From Acidimicrobiia bacterium (GTDB lineage Bacteria; Actinomycetota; Acidimicrobiia; Spongiisociales; SHLN01): a DNA stretch of 64,000 nucleotides. The translations under genes and the position numbers were made by a program. This document shows positions 2,003 to 11,767 of this stretch, in pieces. The DNA lies in contig JBFIPU010000002.1 of assembly GCA_041609995.1 (NCBI GenBank), positions 3,733-67,732 on the forward strand. The letters run 5' to 3'. The notes under the pieces are model-generated. The model saw only the letters and a list, made by a program, of their open reading frames with translations, made no database searches and had not been told where the DNA came from. Position 1 is the stretch's first letter; each line of letters starts with the position of its first letter.

Positions 2003-2989
2003 ATGGCAGAGAAAACTCTCAGCGGAAAGCGGCGCCGCACCAGCCCTCGACGACGTATACTCCGGCGTTTCGCAGGAGCCGCCTTGACCAACAACCTGTT
2101 CCCAATCGACGAATGGCGTCCGAGTCGCGCCGTGATGCTCAAGCTGGTGGCCGACTACGGCCTCCTCACCGTCGGCGCCGTGGCGATGATCTACTCGTAT
2201 CGAACCTTCATGCTGCCCTTCGGCATCGCCGGCGGGGGAGTGGGAGGTCTGGGCCTGGTAGTCAACGAGTGGACGGGCTTTCCCCCCGGGTTGGCCATGC
2301 TGGTGGCGAACCTACCGGTCCTGTTCCTCGGGTATCGCAAGCTCGGGGGACCGCAGTTTCTGGTGCGCACGGCGTACGTGGTGGTCCTGTACAACCTGGG
2401 AGTCGATGTCATCGGTGACATCTTTCCTGACCGGATCTCCGATGACCTCTTGCTGATTGCGCTCTTCGGCGGTGTTCTTTCAGGTCTCGGGGGCGGGCTG
2501 GTCTACCGGGCGGGTGGAACCGCGGCCGGTACCGGCGTCATCAGCCGGGTGGTGCAGATCAGGACGGGGATCCCGGTGAGCCAGCTCTATCTGGTGATAG
2601 ACGGTTCGATTCTGACGCTTCAGGGCCTGACGTTCGGGTGGGAGAAAGCGCTCTACGGTGTGATCCTCCTCTTCGTCGCCGGCCTGGCGCTCGATTACGT
2701 GCTCGAAGGCCCCAGCGTTGTTCGCACGGTGACGGTCGTCACCGACCAGGCCGAGGAGCTGGCCGACTCCGTGTTCGCCACGATGAACGTCGGGGTGACC
2801 GGGTGGCGTGCGACGGGCATGTACACCGACGAGGAACGCGGTGTTCTCTTCTGCACCATCAGCCGCTCCGAGGCCCACCGGCTGGTCGACGCCGTGCGTG
2901 CGGTCGACCCCGATGCGTTCACCGTCATTGGCGTCGGCCATCAACGGCGCGGCGGATTGGTGCGCCCGGACGTGCCGGTCGACGTGTAA
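2003..2989 (+). CDS. YitT-family (DUF161/DUF2179) membrane protein
   Basis: Multi-TM N-terminal region with Gly-rich IAGGGVGGLG helix followed by C-terminal DUF2179-like soluble domain (..VVTVVTDQAEELADSVFATMNVGVTGWRATGMYT..). True start may be the internal Met at ~2135. Confidence 0.7.
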   Translation: MAEKTLSGKRRRTSPRRRILRRFAGAALTNNLFPIDEWRPSRAVMLKLVADYGLLTVGAVAMIYSYRTFMLPFGIAGGGVGGLGLVVNEWTGFPPGLAMLVANLPVLFLGYRKLGGPQFLVRTAYVVVLYNLGVDVIGDIFPDRISDDLLLIALFGGVLSGLGGGLVYRAGGTAAGTGVISRVVQIRTGIPVSQLYLVIDGSILTLQGLTFGWEKALYGVILLFVAGLALDYVLEGPSVVRTVTVVTDQAEELADSVFATMNVGVTGWRATGMYTDEERGVLFCTISRSEAHRLVDAVRAVDPDAFTVIGVGHQRRGGLVRPDVPVDV

Positions 2990-5659: not shown

Positions 5660-6670
5660 CTACTCCTGCGTTGCGGCCGGACGGCCGGCCAAAAGCGCAC
5701 TGATTTTACGAAGTCGTCCGAGGTCGTGCCGGGCGCTCATCCGGCGAATCGCTCCGGTTTTTGACCGCATGACCATTGACTCCGTCAACACTTGGCTTCC
5801 TCGATACTGTACCCCCGACAACCACTCTCCGTCGGTTACGCCCGTGGCGGCGAAGTACACATTATCGGAGTTCACGAGGTCCGAGTGGGACAGAACCGAC
5901 GAGATGTCGCGACCCGTTTCGCGGGCGTAGGCCTCCTCTTCGGGCGAGCGGGGCCACAGCCGACACTGGATGTCTCCACCGAGACATTTGAGGGCGGCGG
6001 CCGACAACACGGCCTCGGGCGATCCGCCGATTCCGAACAGGATGTCGATGCCGGAGTTCTCGATGGACGTGGCGATCGCCCCCGCCACGTCACCGTCTTG
6101 GATGAGGCGAATCCGGGCGCCGGCCGCCCGCACATCGGCGATGAACTTCTCGTTACGCGGCCGCTGCAGGATGATGGCTGTCACGTCCTCGATGGACTTC
6201 TCGCGCGCTTTGGCCACCCGGGCCAGATTGTGGGCCACCGGCGCGTCCAGGTCGATCATGCCGGCCGCCTCCTGCCCCACAGCGATTTTGTCCATGTAAA
6301 CGAGACTGCCGGGCGAGTACATGGAACCTGCATCCGACAAGGCAATCACGGAAACGGCGCCTGGCATGCCGTTGGCGGTCAGCGTCGTTCCGTCGAGCGG
6401 ATCGACCGCCACATCGAGCTTGGGCCCCTTGCCGGTTCCGACCCGCTCGCCGTTGGCCAGCATCGGGGCACCGTCTTTTTCCCCTTCGCCGATGACGACC
6501 ATTCCGTCGATGTCTACATAGTCGAGAATCAACCGCATGCCATCGACCGCTGCCTGATCCGCCGCTTCTTTGTCACCGCGGCCCTGATATCGGGCGGCGA
6601 GGATCGCAGCTGTCTCTGTCACCCGGGCGAGGTCAAGCCCGAGGTTGCGCTCTGGTGCTTCCGCCATCAT
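5660..6670 (-). CDS. glpX: Fructose-1,6-bisphosphatase class II
   Basis: Full-length GlpX-like sequence (..DGMRLILDYVDIDGMVVIGEGEKDGAPML..VDPLDGTT..IDILFGIGGSPEAVLSAAALKCLGG..). Confidence 0.9.
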   Translation of the reverse strand: MMAEAPERNLGLDLARVTETAAILAARYQGRGDKEAADQAAVDGMRLILDYVDIDGMVVIGEGEKDGAPMLANGERVGTGKGPKLDVAVDPLDGTTLTANGMPGAVSVIALSDAGSMYSPGSLVYMDKIAVGQEAAGMIDLDAPVAHNLARVAKAREKSIEDVTAIILQRPRNEKFIADVRAAGARIRLIQDGDVAGAIATSIENSGIDILFGIGGSPEAVLSAAALKCLGGDIQCRLWPRSPEEEAYARETGRDISSVLSHSDLVNSDNVYFAATGVTDGEWLSGVQYRGSQVLTESMVMRSKTGAIRRMSARHDLGRLRKISALLAGRPAATQE

Positions 6671-6751: not shown

Positions 6752-8032
6752 CTAGAACTGTTCCTCTTCGGTGGAGCCGACCAGAGCCAGGGTGGAGGCG
6801 TTGCTCCCAGAGGCGATCACCTGGGCGACCTGATCGAAATAGCCCGCCCCGACTTCCCGCTGGTGGCGGGTTGCCGTATATCCATCCTCTTCCATGGTGA
6901 ACTCGTGCTCCTGCAGCTGGACGTAGGCGGGCATGCCTTCGGCCGCATACCCGCGGGCGAGCTCGAACATCCCGGCGTTGAGGGCATGGAAGCCGGCCAG
7001 CGTGATGAACTGATACTTGTAGCCCATGGCGCCCAACTCCTTCTGAAACACAGCAATCGTGGCGTCATCGAGATGCCGCTTCCAGTTGAAGGAGGGCGAG
7101 CAGTTATAGGCCATCATCTTTCCCGGGTGCTCGGCGCCGAGCCTCTCGGCGAACTCCCGAGCGATGTCGAGGTCGGGTGTGCTGGTCTCGCACCACACGA
7201 GGTCGGCGTACGGAGCGTAGGCCACGCCTCGGGCCACCGCCTGATCCATGCTGTTGTCGACCCGATGGAAGCCCTCGGCAGTCCGCTCTCCGGTCAGGAA
7301 GGGGCGATCGCGCTCATCGATGTCGGAGGTCAGCATGTCGGCTCCGAGAGAGTCGGTGCGGGCGACGATCACCAGATCGACTCCAAGGACGTCGGCCGCC
7401 AGCCGCGCCGCCACCAGGCTCCGGATGTGCTGCTGGGTGGGGATGAGGACTTTCCCACCCATGTGGCCGCATTTCTTCTCGGAGGCCAGCTGGTCCTCGA
7501 GGTGGATGCCGGCTGCGCCGGCTTCGACGTAGGCCTTGACCAGCTCGTATACATTGAGCGCGCCCCCGAACCCGGCCTCGGCGTCCGCCATGATCGGCAG
7601 CATCCAATCGCGTGAGACCTTGCCCTCCGACCATTCGATCTGATCGGCGCGCATCAAGGCGCTGTTGATGCGCTTGACGAGCTCGGGTCCGCTGTTGACG
7701 GGGTAGAGGCTCTGGTCGGGATAGACGTTGCCGCTGAGGTTGGCGTCGCCCGCCACCTGCCAACCGGACAAATAGATCGACTGCAGCCCTGCCTTGGCCA
7801 TCTGGACGGCCTGGCCGCCTGACATCGCGCCGAGAGATCGGACGAAGTCGCCGGAGGTGATCATCTTCCACAGCTTCTCCGCGCCGGTGCGGCTGATGAC
7901 ATGATCCCGGCGGATGGAACCCCGGAGCCTGACAACGTCCTCGGCGCTGTACGGCCGGGTGATACCGTTCCAACGTGGGTTGGTTTCCCAGTCCAGCTGG
8001 AGCGCTTCGATTTCCTGCTGCATGGTTGTCAT
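6752..8032 (-). CDS. aceA: Isocitrate lyase
   Basis: ICL signature [11 protein letters not shown], ..ARTDS..; 426 aa. Confidence 0.95.
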
Positions 8033-8050: not shown

Positions 8051-9640
8051 CTAGGTGCTGACGGCCTGGGGGAGCAGCTCTTGGGCAGGGATCGTGAGGA
8101 ACTCTTCGAAGTTCTCTGATAGGGCCACCTGCAGGAACACCGATGAGGCGCGGGCGACGCCCAGCTGTTCGTAGGCGTCATCACCCATCTCTTCCCGCCA
8201 TCGGGCGAGCTCCTCCGCTGTCAGCTCATGGACCAGTTCGGTCGTGACGGCCCGGCCGTCGTCGAGGCTGGCCCCGTGGCGGACCCACTGCCAGATCTGG
8301 GAGCGGCTGATTTCGGCGGTCGCCGCGTCCTCCATGAGGTTGAAGATGGCGGCGGCTCCGGTCCCGTTTATCCAGGAGGTGATGTAGCGAATACCGACCG
8401 AGATGTTCTTGCGAAGGCCCGCCTCGGTGATCGTTCCGGTGGGCACGGCGAGCAAGTCTGCCTGTGTGATCCAGCCGACCGGTCCCGGATTGGCGATCTG
8501 GTTCGGTGCGCCGCCGAGGACCCGGGCGAAAGCATCCATGGCGACGTCGATCAGGTCCGGGTGGGCAACCCAGGTGCCATCGTGACCCTTGTGGGCCTCC
8601 TTGTCCTTGTCAGCCTTGACCTTGGCCAGCGCCCGATCCGTGATGGTGGGGTTGGACCGATCCGGGATGAATGCCGCCATGCCCCCCATGGCGTGTGCTC
8701 CCCGGCGGTGGCAGGTGTGAACGAGGAGATCGGTGTACGCCTCCATGAACGGCACCGACATCGTCACCTGGTCCCGATCCGGCATCACGAACGCCGGATC
8801 ACTCCGGAGCTTCTTGATGACCGAAAAGATGTAGTCCCAGCGGCCGGCGTTGAGGCCGGCGGAGTGATTCCTCAGCTCGTAGAGGATCTCGTTCATCTCG
8901 AAAGCAGCCGGCAGTGTCTCGATGAGGACGGTTGCCTTGATTGTGCCCTGCGCGATGTCGAGGTGATCCTGGCTGAAGACAAACACGTCATTCCAGAGGC
9001 GAGCTTCGAGGTGTGACTCGAGCTTGGGAAGGTAGTAATACGGTCCGGTGCCGCGAGAGATCAGTTCTCGCCCATTGTGAAAGAGATACATCCCGAAATC
9101 GAACAGCGACGCACTCAGAGGCTCGCCGTCGATCGTGACGCTTCGCTCTTCTAGGTGCCATCCCCGCGGTCGGACCATCAGCACTGCCAGCTGCTCTCCG
9201 AGCTGGTAGATCTTGCCGTTCTGCTCGAGCTCGATCGATCGTCGCACGGCGTCCTTCAGGTTGATCTGGCCGCCGATCGTGTTGGCGTAGGTGGGAGAGT
9301 TGGAATCCTCGAAATCGGCCATGAACGCCTTGGCCCCACTGTTGAGAGCATTGATGATCATCTTGCGATCGACCGGGCCGGTGATCTCGACCGTGCGGTT
9401 CTCGAGGTCCGGCGGAATCGGGGCGATGGTCCAGTCGCTCGTCCGGATCGACTCGGTGGAAGGAAGGAAATCGGGTTTCACGCCCCGATCAAACGCCTCC
9501 TGGCGACCGCGGCGGGTATCGAGCAGCGCAAGGCGCCGGTGATCGAACCGTCGGTGGAGCTCCGCCACGAACGCAAGGGCGTCTTCTGTGAGGATTTCGG
9601 AGGCTCGTGGGTGGTCCGACGGGGTGTGATGGATGTTCAT
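8051..9640 (-). CDS. aceB: Malate synthase A
   Basis: 529 aa; malate synthase A-type sequence (..[63 protein letters not shown]..). Directly upstream of aceA on the same strand. Confidence 0.95.
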
Positions 9641-9915
9641 ACGCTCATAATTATTGATAGATTTTCGACCGCCGACAGATTCGCCCGGTAAGAATGAGTG
9701 ATATTATCAATAGGGCAAGATCTGCACAGTCGCGAGCGGGCGAGCAAACGAGCATCGGGCGCGACTCGCCAATGGCGGGCCCGACCGTGACGAGGCAGGT
9801 CAGAAACCACCGGAAGAAGCCGATCGAAAGCAAAAGACGACCGATCCCGGACATGAGATCACGGGGTTCGGGTGGCAGCCACCCGAACCATCGGACCCGG
9901 ATAGGAGACACAGCA

Positions 9916-10016
9916 CACGTGAACACGGACACATGAACACGGACACATGAACACGGACACATGAACACGGACACATGAACACCGACACATGAACACCGAC
10001 ACATGAACACCGGGAC
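9916..10016. repeat. Seven tandem copies of a 14-bp unit (GAACACGGACACAT; last copies GAACACCGACACAT / GAACACCGGGACAT) in the aceB-ramB divergent promoter; the final copy contains the ramB-like ATG
   Basis: Read directly: ..acacgtGAACACGGACACAT x4, GAACACCGACACAT x2, GAACACCGGGACATtt.. Generates spurious repeat-derived ORFs on both strands (9651..10127, 9800..10018). Confidence 0.9.
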
Positions 10017-11448
10017 ATTTGGCCGAAGAGTTCGCCACTTCCGGAAGGAAGCGGGACTCACCCTCGAGGAATTGGGGGCGCTGGTCGGCAGGCCCGCACC
10101 GTACCTGTCCAACATCGAGACCGGCAAGCGGGAGCCGAAGCTGGGCGTAGTTCAGGACCTGGCAAATGCGCTGGGGATCAGCTCACAAGCGCTGCTGGAG
10201 GAGACCGCGCCCACCGAACGCGACCGCCTCGAGCTCGAGCTGGAGACGGCCCAACGCCATCCGTTGTATGCCGAGCTCGGCTTGCCACACCTCAAGCCCA
10301 CGGCCAGGATGCCCGACCTCGCCCTCCACCATCTGGTGGAGCTGTTTCGGGGGATGGTTTCGTCACGCGAGCTCGCCCCGGACGCGATGCGGGTGGCGAC
10401 GACCCAGCTTCGTTCCGAGATGGCGCGCCGCGACAACTACGTCGGCGAGATCGAGGACGTTGCCAGCGCCACGCTGGCCAAGTCCTCTTACCAGGGAACC
10501 GGGCCGGTGGCGCAAGCGCAGCTGTTGGAGATCCTCGATGCGTTCGGCTTCTCGATTGCCCGGGTGTCCGACCTTCCGCGGACGACGCGCTCGGTCGCCG
10601 ATCTCGCCAACCGAACCATCTACCTTCCCCAACGGGACGCTCTTCGGACCCGTGACGCCCGGTCTGTCCTGCTGCAGACCCTCGCCCATTTCGCGCTGGA
10701 GCACGTCGACCCCGAAGACCTCGAAACGTTTCTTCGTCAGCGTATCGAGGCCAACTACTTCGCCGGAGCGGTGCTGGCGCCGGAAGAGGCCGCCGTGGCG
10801 TTTCTGCGGGCCGAGCAAGAGGATCGGAACCTGTCGGTGGGCGATCTGAAAGAGGTCTTTTACGTGTCGTATCAGATGGCGGCCCACCGATTCACCAACC
10901 TCGCCACCCGCCACCTCGATATCCCGGTTCACCTCGTGCGGAGCGACGAGGCCGGGATCATCTGGCAGGTCTATGAGAACAACGGCGTACCGCTGCCCCG
11001 GGCGGCCGATGGCAGCGTCGAGGGCCAGCGGCTGTGCAAGGAGTGGGGAACGCGAGCTGTCTTCAAGTCACCCGACAAATACTCGCTTCACTACCAGTAC
11101 ACCGACACCACCAACGGCACCTACTGGTGCGCGTCGCACATCATCGTCGACAGTGAGCCGTTGCATGCGGTCACGGTCGGCACCGACTTCGAGCATGTTC
11201 GGTTCTTCCGCGGAAGGGAAACCGAGCGCCATACGGCCAGCGGGTGCCCGGACGGGCCGTGCTGCCGGACGCCTTCGCCGGGCCTGGCGGAGCGCTGGGC
11301 GGGGCACGTGTGGCCGTCCGTGATCGGACGCTCTCATCCTGGAGCACCGGTTCCTGGTGTCTTCGCCGGTGTCGACATGGTCGAGATCTACGAATTCCTT
11401 GAAACACATGCACAAGACGAGAATCAGATATCGGATCGGGTAGAGTGA
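10003..11448 (+). CDS. ramB: RamB/ScfR-like transcriptional regulator (XRE-family HTH + ImmA/IrrE-type DUF955 domain)
   Basis: N-term HTH GRRVRHFRKEAGLTLEELGALVGRPAPYLSNIETGKREPKLGVVQDLANALGIS. Long C-terminal short-chain-fatty-acyl-CoA-regulator-type domain. Divergent from aceB/aceA, the arrangement known for ramB-icl in Corynebacteriales. Confidence 0.8.
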   Translation: MNTGTFGRRVRHFRKEAGLTLEELGALVGRPAPYLSNIETGKREPKLGVVQDLANALGISSQALLEETAPTERDRLELELETAQRHPLYAELGLPHLKPTARMPDLALHHLVELFRGMVSSRELAPDAMRVATTQLRSEMARRDNYVGEIEDVASATLAKSSYQGTGPVAQAQLLEILDAFGFSIARVSDLPRTTRSVADLANRTIYLPQRDALRTRDARSVLLQTLAHFALEHVDPEDLETFLRQRIEANYFAGAVLAPEEAAVAFLRAEQEDRNLSVGDLKEVFYVSYQMAAHRFTNLATRHLDIPVHLVRSDEAGIIWQVYENNGVPLPRAADGSVEGQRLCKEWGTRAVFKSPDKYSLHYQYTDTTNGTYWCASHIIVDSEPLHAVTVGTDFEHVRFFRGRETERHTASGCPDGPCCRTPSPGLAERWAGHVWPSVIGRSHPGAPVPGVFAGVDMVEIYEFLETHAQDENQISDRVE

Positions 11449-11767
11449 TTCCTGCGTGACCACGGCGCGCGCTGCGTGGTGGTCTCGCATAACCCGAATG
11501 CCGGCGCCATTCCGATGCCGCGGCAGAAGGCTGATGCAGCGAGGGCAACAGAGCCGGGCAAGAAACGGGAGAAACGGTTACGCGTTGAGAGGCTGCGCAG
11601 CCATGCGGGGAAAAACCAGGCGGGTCAAGATTGGGCGGGGCACCCGGGCGCCAGCGAGCGCGCCATCGCCCACCCCCACCCCCACCCATCGTGATGATGC
11701 AGGGCTGAATGATGCAGGGCCGAGCGACGTTCCCGCAGGCGCCTTCAGCGGCATCTTCCAGAGCTGG

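Follow-up and report, generated by a model that had tools for sequence, protein, structure and literature searches.

In the 64-kb stretch of DNA analysed here (the window), the gene for a RamB-like regulator lies divergently to an aceB-aceA-glpX cluster and has no co-directional upstream neighbour, and the divergent intergenic region holds a tandem array of short repeats, the last copy of which is the beginning of the regulator ORF itself (Table 1). The domains of the regulator were recognised as HTH_31 (2.3e-15) and Peptidase_M78 (3.4e-8), and 1702 homologues were found, overwhelmingly in metagenome-assembled genomes of Acidimicrobiia (some of them labelled 'fatty acid utilization regulator' by their sources). 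A combination of an XRE helix-turn-helix with an M78-like domain, and an association with acetate and glyoxylate-shunt genes, are also found in the RamB/ScfR family (PMC4448153, PMC10370305), and the position of the regulator gene, divergent to aceB-aceA, is in keeping with this; but the relationship to RamB of Corynebacterium is only distant (37.9 bits against the NCBIfam RamB equivalog model NF038139, the cut-off of which is 700). The name ramB, suggested for the gene in an initial annotation of this DNA, can therefore be kept only in the sense that the protein is RamB-like by architecture and gene context, and not as that of a demonstrated RamB orthologue. The N-terminus, MNTGTFGRR, aligns with those of homologues beginning MKTDVFGRR, MDLATFGRR and M-DRLVFGHR; as these also start about five residues before FGRR, the ATG at 10003 is the correct start.

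The array consists of seven head-to-tail copies of a 14-bp unit, and occupies positions 9919-10016 when it is read in the register of the start codon. Tandem Repeats Finder (TRF) reported it at 9915-10010 (period 14, 6.9 copies, 97% matches, no indels, score 171), the top-scoring of 31 rows for the window, the runner-up having a score of 58. A search for the unit with up to two mismatches returned the seven array copies and three scattered 2-mismatch matches (10 matches, against about 0.94 expected in shuffles, none of 100 shuffles reaching 10), and nothing comparable elsewhere in the 64 kb, so that the head-to-tail copies, far above chance, qualify the array as a minisatellite. The initial annotation had described a seven-copy array at the 5' end of the regulator gene, with the register GAACACGGACACAT repeated seven times and the last three copies variant, ATGAACAC in each unit, the regulator start codon supplied by the last copy, and a distance of about 280 bp from aceB. 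All of this was borne out by TRF and by the mismatch-tolerant search (the start codon of aceB is complementary to 9638-9640, 278 bp from the beginning of the array), and the location was also right, except that the start given for it, 9916, is 3 nt early in the start-codon register. The internal variants are ordered, with the GTG copy first, four G-type units, and then the C-type units, and no stretch of identity is longer than 56 bp. In base composition the array is rich in A (35 A, 26 C, 17 G and 6 T in 84 nt).

Table 1. Genes, repeat copies and candidate signals around the regulator start codon (positions in the window)
Feature	Position	Strand	Remarks
glpX, fructose-1,6-bisphosphatase	5660-6670	-	
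aceA, isocitrate lyase	6752-8032	-	
aceB, malate synthase A	8051-9640	-	First gene of the divergent aceB-aceA-glpX cluster
3-codon mini-ORF, ATG AGC GTA TGA	9637-9648	-	Its TGA overlaps the aceB ATG
TATTAT	9702-9707	+	Candidate -10 of the regulator gene, from consensus
GGCAAGATCTGCAC	9714-9727		Candidate operator, shortly after the -10-like hexamer
Perfect 12+12 palindrome, GGTTCGGGTGGC-A-GCCACCCGAACC	9865-9889		30 nt before the array, in the putative leader
AGGAG, the sole SD-like element	9903-9907	+	11 nt before GTG 9919, the first start of the chain
Copy 1, GTGAACACGGACAC	9919-9932	+	
Copies 2-4, ATGAACACGGACAC (three times)	starts 9933, 9947, 9961	+	
Copies 5-6, ATGAACACCGACAC (twice)	starts 9975, 9989	+	
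Copy 7, ATGAACACCGGGAC	10003-10016	+	First 14 nt of the regulator ORF
Six upstream units, 5-codon mini-ORFs	9919-10002	+	GTG/ATG AAC ACS GAC ACA TGA, V/M-N-T-D-T-stop
The same mini-ORFs, including stops	9919-9936, 9933-9950, 9947-9964, 9961-9978, 9975-9992, 9989-10006	+	
RamB-like regulator, ScfR type, 481 aa	10003-11448	+	XRE helix-turn-helix and ImmA/IrrE (M78) domain

Candidate signals in the intergenic region

On the strand of the regulator gene, the 362-bp intergenic region contains just two TANNNT hexamers, at 9658 and 9702. The second of these, TATTAT, has positional counterparts in related loci (TAAGAT in L008 and L001, TATAGT in L007) and, if it is the -10 element that its resemblance to the consensus suggests, would place the array inside a leader of about 290 nt. 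Between 9708 and the main start there is no TANNNT hexamer, so that the array is unlikely to contain, or to be directly preceded by, a sigmaA-type promoter, and a strict sigma-70 scan likewise found no promoter-like site in or beside the array (promoter sequences of the host may differ). A terminator at the array was considered and dismissed, as the single terminator-like match lies on the opposite strand and is at chance level.

Just downstream of the -10-like hexamer is a candidate operator, GGCAAGATCTGCAC, which has three mismatches to a palindrome, GTGAAGATCTTCAC, that emerged from a k-mer search of 77 orthologous upstream regions. About 11 of these 77 distant orthologous loci have GTGAAGATCTTCAC upstream of codon 6 of the regulator gene, at a distance of some 53-63 nt (84 nt in a single locus), and a match such as that in the window arises in about 1% of shuffled upstream regions. 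The candidate at 9714-9727 may thus point, weakly, away from the array as the site of operator function.

The perfect palindrome that precedes the array is predicted to form a strong hairpin; the window has no second copy of it, and the sister loci described below lack it. The array itself folds poorly (-15.7 kcal/mol, z = -2.1, with an almost unpaired centroid), and the idea of a structured array RNA, with CAUG/CAUG and CGG/CCG pairing between its G-type and C-type halves, was not convincing in view of this weak fold. No known RNA family or riboswitch was significant in the region in an Rfam search at E<=10, nor did any reach the gathering threshold in the whole window. A leader-peptide attenuator was also rejected: the pentapeptide MNTDT has no amino-acid bias, no terminator follows the array, the fold is weak, and there is no Rfam match. 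As for a reading of the array as a set of CsrA-type GGA decoys, CsrA is, to our knowledge, not a feature of Actinomycetota.

Reading frames within the array

The unit reads ATG AAC ACG GAC AC/A TGA (the stroke marking the unit boundary), and its period of 14 is 3x5-1. Because the unit contains ATGA and has this length, each upstream copy is a full five-codon mini-ORF in UGA/AUG overlap with what follows. The outcome is a series of six consecutive ATGA junctions, in which the TGA of every mini-ORF overlaps the next ATG, and that of the sixth overlaps the regulator's own ATG at 10003. The G-to-C variant of copies 5-7, read in the frame of the mini-ORFs, leaves Thr unchanged (ACG to ACC). Taken alone, the array in the window is weak evidence for such a chain, since any 3n-1 period suffices once the unit starts with ATGA (a prior of about 1/3). 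As TGA closes each of the three frames across the array, an N-terminal extension of the regulator through it is impossible and was ruled out. An ORF of 80 aa that ends on the first ATGA (9694-9936) was discounted as a real gene, having neither a family match nor conservation in the sister loci; its GC3 is 0.67, compared with 0.79 for the regulator gene.

No SD-like sequence is present in the 20 nt before ATG 10003. The sole SD-like element is AGGAG, ahead of the first start of the chain, and we infer that it is used as an SD; its spacing of 11 nt from GTG 9919 is long, above the optimum. The array therefore combines two of the features looked for in TeRe-coupled uORFs, namely ATGA overlaps together with an SD-like signal upstream (at this above-optimal spacing) and none at the downstream start. 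De novo initiation at AUG 10003 without an SD is plausible in Actinobacteria, and would make a chain unnecessary.

Repeats at the same position in sister species

The nearest relatives of the window's species, with regulator proteins 77-79% identical to the one considered here, have other repeats at the same spot, and these fall into two groups. In the first (four assemblies: L008, L009/L010, L090 and L091), a 15-bp array with an ATG in each unit (ATGCATATACCAGCC and variants) reaches the regulator start codon. Three copies of ATGCATATACCAGCC are present in L009 and two in L008 (the extra L009 copy sits at a contig end), and each of the four assemblies has its own order and types of unit. The array has diverged at 2-5 times the pace of the intergenic DNA on its flanks (11/95 differences in the array vs 5/159 in the flank, 6/95 vs 2/159, and 9/95 vs 7/159). 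In the second group (L001-L006 and L092), the regulator has an N-terminal extension whose coding sequence includes, in frame, a 12-bp repeat, GCCGCGCGGACA, and L001 and L092 differ by exactly one unit. In this one small subclade, then, the 5' end of the regulator gene is a hot spot for repeats, and the polymorphism there is real. The initial annotation had recommended comparing copy number between strains, and these pairs (L009 vs L008, L001 vs L092) provide the comparison by proxy; for the window's own species no second assembly was found, and it is absent from the GTDB representatives. Its regulator protein forms a single-member protein cluster and is not in the contig index, and metagenome contig scans with a two-unit pattern for same-species arrays, and with a degenerate pattern of the first 14 codons for the same-species gene, were both empty. 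The contig for P0121 carries only a C-terminal fragment of the regulator.

The frames of the 15-bp arrays are also arranged around ATGA. In L008 and L091, a 6-codon uORF1 (MPPSET) is joined through ATGA to a 41-codon uORF2, which runs across the array and ends in ATGA on the main start codon. L090 has a +2 indel in the array together with a new ATGA junction (changed segment ...AAATGATAA...): the segment brings the long uORF to a stop and at the same time opens a new uORF of 10 codons, which itself ends in ATGA on the main start. The new junction apparently compensates the 2-bp indel, restoring an unbroken chain. In this 15-bp lineage the ATG of the last unit is in frame with the gene, and a start 15 nt upstream is possible, which would give an overlap of 19 nt rather than 4; one GenBank record, MBT8248803.1, is a translation straight through the 15-bp array and reads GHTSHAYTSHAY.... 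Unlike these chains, the N-terminal extension of the L001-type lineage is in-frame and lies behind a GGAAG SD. Mini-ORF peptides are not conserved between lineages. Beyond the subclade, no array abuts the start in L007 (a 72% relative) or in 77 loci at <=57% identity, and an ATGA-coupled uORF at the start is rare among them.

A related arrangement occurs on the other side of the intergenic region, where the 3-codon mini-ORF before aceB ends in a TGA that overlaps the aceB ATG. The length, start and overlap of this mini-ORF, and the sequence AATTATG, are kept in L008, L090, L091, L001 and L092, while the inner codons vary (ATG TGC ACA TGA in the L008 group, ATG TTC CCA TGA in L001, ATG TTC CTA TGA in L092). 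The ATGA chains of the sister species and the aceB mini-ORF together suggest that hand-off from mini-ORFs through ATGA may be a device used at this locus.

Possible origin and role of the array

The unit ATGAACACGGACACA (encoding MNTDT) matches the N-terminal coding sequence of a sister gene, ATGAAGACAGACGTG (MKTDV), at 11 of 15 nt, a better match than that of the window's present main start (MNTGT). From this similarity to a sister 5' coding end, it would seem that the array was copied from the 5' end of the gene itself, most simply by tandem duplication (slipped-strand) of its first 14 nt and then further slippage.

How might such an array act? ATGA overlaps are known to support termination-reinitiation (PMC6728339), and in M. 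tuberculosis uORFs commonly show NUGA overlaps, with one another as well as with genes; of the ORFs downstream in such pairs, more than half are without initiation signals, and the coupling may suppress Rho (bioRxiv 10.1101/2022.06.01.494293). Short ORFs have been proposed to deliver ribosomes to the gene to which they are coupled (PMC12548453). We infer that transcription passes through the array, that reinitiation takes place at its junctions, and that expression is affected. The array would most likely lie within the transcribed 5' leader; ribosomes could start out from AGGAG/GTG 9919, or from any of the AUGs in the A-rich and weakly structured tract, translate the pentapeptide and terminate on AUGA; and termination-reinitiation would then pass them from unit to unit to the SD-less main AUG at 10003. 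Unit number would set both the count of hand-offs and the length of the leader, and might thus serve as a heritable dial on the dosage of the regulator, rather than as an on/off switch. Ribosomes on this unstructured tract, in which C exceeds G, may also shield the leader from Rho. The chain would, moreover, be the arrangement that lets a gene tolerate an expansion of repeats at its start codon. A lineage-specific 5'-leader VNTR that acts on translation by termination-reinitiation is the reading of the array that we prefer, judging from the arrangement of frames and repeats, although we find the case for it about evenly balanced.

Some of the same observations can be accommodated if the array is a neutral or mildly deleterious satellite, initiation at AUG 10003 being SD-independent and the mini-ORFs and ATGA overlaps by-products; we regard this, the main rival, as rather doubtful, though deserving serious consideration. 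It would fit with the automatic emergence of a chain from unit length and content (with the prior of about 1/3 already mentioned), the confinement of arrays to one small subclade (none abutting the start in the 77 distant loci), the lack of conservation of the mini-ORF peptides, and the rapid turnover of unit sequences. Less easily reconciled with a satellite are the persistence of repeats at the same position in three lineages some 21-23% apart in protein, the retention of ATG in nearly every unit, the compensating ATGA junction of L090, and the conserved ATGA mini-uORF that also precedes aceB; and six decoy AUGs before an SD-less start could hardly be without effect if the array is transcribed. 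A more mundane source of the array, or of its copy number, would be the short-read assembly of a metagenome, from which the genome containing the window was indeed obtained, and sister contigs do break at arrays (L009, and L003, L004 and L006 at the downstream repeat). This we consider very improbable, given the orderly arrangement of the internal variants, an identical run (56 bp) that is shorter than typical final k-mers, and the independent assembly of analogous arrays in several other cases.

The two roles put forward in the initial annotation fared less well than its description of the array. One was a bank of operators (or iterons), with the 14-bp repeats binding the RamB-like protein or some other regulator of the divergent promoter. 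In its favour, autoregulation is known for RamB proteins and paired boxes for ScfR-type regulators (PMC4448153, PMC10370305), three units make 42 bp or four helical turns, and the first unit has, by eye, an 8/10 match to the CRP/GlxR-type site TGTGA-N6-TCACA. (The CRP/GlxR-like sites, 7-8/10 by eye, are not conserved in the sister arrays and were treated as chance.) The unit is nevertheless unlike the RamB box AA/GAACTTTGCAAA (PMC4448153), and that box, which is the one of Corynebacterium, is not found within two mismatches in the intergenic region. The array follows the only -10-like elements at a distance of about 200 nt, and one of these has beside it a better operator candidate, at 9714-9727. 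Since the unit is absent from the rest of the 64 kb, and since the recognition helix (PAPYLSNIETGKR) is near-identical to that of a sister species (PAPYLSTIETGKR) whose repeat unit is unrelated, an operator bank is improbable. The other suggestion was that slipped-strand mispairing makes the array a contingency locus, a change in copy number shifting the spacing from promoter to start and also altering which ATG is in frame. In a classical locus of the frameshift type, a gain or loss of 14 bp would switch the regulator ON or OFF in the latter way. A period that is not a multiple of three, and repeats that touch the start codon, made this a natural thought, and a VNTR nature is plausible from the differences in copy number and order among sister arrays. 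Every upstream ATG is, however, closed by TGA after five codons, with the three frames closed, while the last ATG and its ORF stay intact whatever the number of copies; whole-unit gain or loss therefore cannot frameshift the gene, and a switch of this kind is hardly credible.

A bolder version of the translational reading can also be stated, in which selection maintains the array as a copy-number 'ribosome relay': in one subclade of Acidimicrobiia the master regulator of the glyoxylate shunt would be translated only by way of the ATGA mini-ORF chain, slippage would heritably dial its dosage and with it the carbon-source strategy, sister lineages would have reached or kept the same solution with other units, and aceB would have a single, 3-codon version. 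We put this forward tentatively, considering it unlikely as a whole.

Comparison with known systems and significance

Among repeats of known type, those that seem closest to the array are the MIRU-VNTRs of mycobacteria, and it resembles a miniature MIRU. As in a MIRU, the unit carries an ORF with 4-nt stop/start overlaps to its neighbours and has a length of 3n-1. The common 53- and 77-bp MIRU units are also of 3n-1 length. In the summaries of Supply 1997 that are given in later papers (PMC12548453, PMC3184786), MIRUs are placed at start codons and carry an ORF coupled at -4. Going by those summaries, both are tandem units at a start codon in Actinomycetota, with ORFs coupled through a 4-nt stop/start overlap, and the copy number of MIRUs is polymorphic between strains. 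On the same basis, they differ in unit size (14 bp in the array, 40-100 bp in MIRUs), in the source of the unit (the gene's own first codons, as against a dispersed and possibly mobile element), in dispersal (once in 64 kb and without a metagenome-contig match, as against 40-50 per genome) and in context (the leader of a divergent regulator gene, as against positions between the genes of operons); unit size, dispersal and the lack of an operon context place the array outside the definition of a MIRU.

The NUGA-uORF systems share with the array the ATGA overlaps and an SD-less downstream start, ribosome delivery and Rho shielding having been proposed for them (bioRxiv 10.1101/2022.06.01.494293; PMC6728339; PMC12548453). 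They consist of single uORFs or short series of unrelated uORFs, whereas the array has six identical pentapeptide ORFs, and, as these are made by a tandem repeat, the number of hand-offs would itself be mutable. A transcribed tract in which copy number grades expression, with no switch, is exemplified by the 5'-UTR repeat of hmw1A in Haemophilus influenzae (PMC12721329), to which the array may be likened; but start and stop codons play no part in the action of the hmw repeat (7 bp, ATCTTTC), which takes effect by means of a long hairpin and RNase III (PMC12721329), and in our folding no comparable hairpin involves the array. The TAACTGA heptamer repeats of Beggiatoaceae, Cyanobacteria and Bacteroidetes lie directly before start codons and contain stops, and, as with the array, SD sequences are rare at their sites and a translational role has been proposed (PMC4679880). 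They are, however, genome-wide (169 sets in one genome), include no start codon, and have been proposed to bind protein (PMC4679880), in contrast to the single locus of the array and its units that are complete mini-ORFs. In the papers on RamB/ScfR regulators cited here (PMC4448153, PMC10370305) no tandem array at a ramB start codon is described.

What makes the feature interesting is thus less the roles at first proposed for it than the architecture of its reading frames and the fact that it recurs in sister species. Arrays of this kind are misread by automated annotation, as in the sister record that was translated through its array. Even if the array in the window is only a tolerated satellite, it shows how a gene can survive the expansion of a repeat on its start codon. 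Should the chain work as we propose, it would be the smallest and clearest natural example of a series of termination-reinitiation cassettes that is open to mutation, in which one whole mini-ORF makes up each 14-bp unit and the number of units can change by slippage, and so a ready-made natural design for graded translational control. It would then join repeat-driven variation with uORFs and translational coupling in the leader-poor and SD-poor Actinomycetota, and would do so, in the abundant uncultured Acidimicrobiia, at the gene that chooses between the glyoxylate shunt and gluconeogenesis on the one hand and other uses of carbon on the other.

Divergent region between aceB and the regulator gene

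Two −10-like hexamers, one on each strand, face each other and overlap within 9701-9707 of the window (see table), and this could be a core common to the divergent aceB and regulator promoters. From 9700 to 10050 the + strand carries far more A than T (AT skew 0.35-0.71), a bias that reaches far past the limits of the array.

The palindrome upstream of the array occurs only once in the window and has one copy of an imperfect direct repeat on either side (22 nt, 73% identical; 9837-9858 and 9887-9908); the sister loci lack the palindrome, and no T-run follows it on either strand. It could be a leader hairpin, a site bound by a protein or a small inserted segment.

At the other end of the region lies a three-codon mini-ORF. 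Three sister lineages share its start codon and its length, have AATT upstream of it and keep the ATGA overlap; the pair of inner codons varies between them. In L007, the 72% relative that lacks an array at the regulator start, ATT stands where the others have ATG. The mini-ORF looks like a conserved mini-uORF for ribosome delivery to aceB.

Features around the regulator gene (coordinates of the window or of the sister locus named)
Feature	Position	Strand	Remarks
−10-like hexamer TATTAT	window 9702-9707	+	
−10-like hexamer TAATAT	window 9706-9701	-	
Perfect 12+12 palindrome, GGTTCGGGTGGC-A-GCCACCCGAACC	window 9865-9889		30 nt 5' of array
Mini-ORF, ATG AGC GTA TGA	window 9637-9648	-	TGA overlaps aceB ATG
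Mini-ORF counterparts	L008 about 2744-2755; L001 about 2862-2873		also L092, L090, L091
Conserved non-coding block, GCGCGCGCTGCGTGGT	window 11455-11480; L001 4567-4600; L090 2392-2425		
Second leader repeat, 15 bp (GGTGAGAAGCCACAT) x4.9	L001 4760-4844		also present in L002

Conserved block and second leader repeat downstream

Directly 3' of the regulator stop codon is a conserved block for which Rfam gave no match; in the sister loci TCTGTAGATTGA comes next. Some 120-320 nt separate the block from the conserved gene that follows it. In the window this gene is likely to start at ATG 11603, whereas the mechanical ORF list gives GTG 11456.

In L001, a sister locus with the 12-bp in-frame repeat, a second leader repeat is contained in a small ORF (MGEKPHGEKTHGDKPH...). 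This ORF stops 5 nt short of the start of a conserved gene (227 aa) 3' of the regulator. Here too, every unit of the repeat contains an ATG. Contigs L003, L004 and L006 break off within this second repeat, which the homologous region of the window and that of L090 (15-bp lineage) lack.

Regulator starts in other genomes

The L009/L010 contig (15-bp lineage) ends within its repeat, so that the public translation of GenBank MBT8248803.1 (L009/L010 1-111) reads through the array; its N-terminal GHTSHAYTSHAYTSHAY... is an annotation artefact due to the VNTR.

Among the more distant orthologous loci (L012-L089), one subgroup has a clear AGGAGG, and in many others the regulator start lacks a Shine-Dalgarno sequence. 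Instead, the latter share a TCTG-N-CAAAGTT / CATTATTTT-like segment that is conserved; it lies in the zone 20-45 nt from the regulator start and ends 5-8 nt upstream of the ATG. This suggests transcripts that are leaderless or nearly so, overlapped by a RamB-box-like site.
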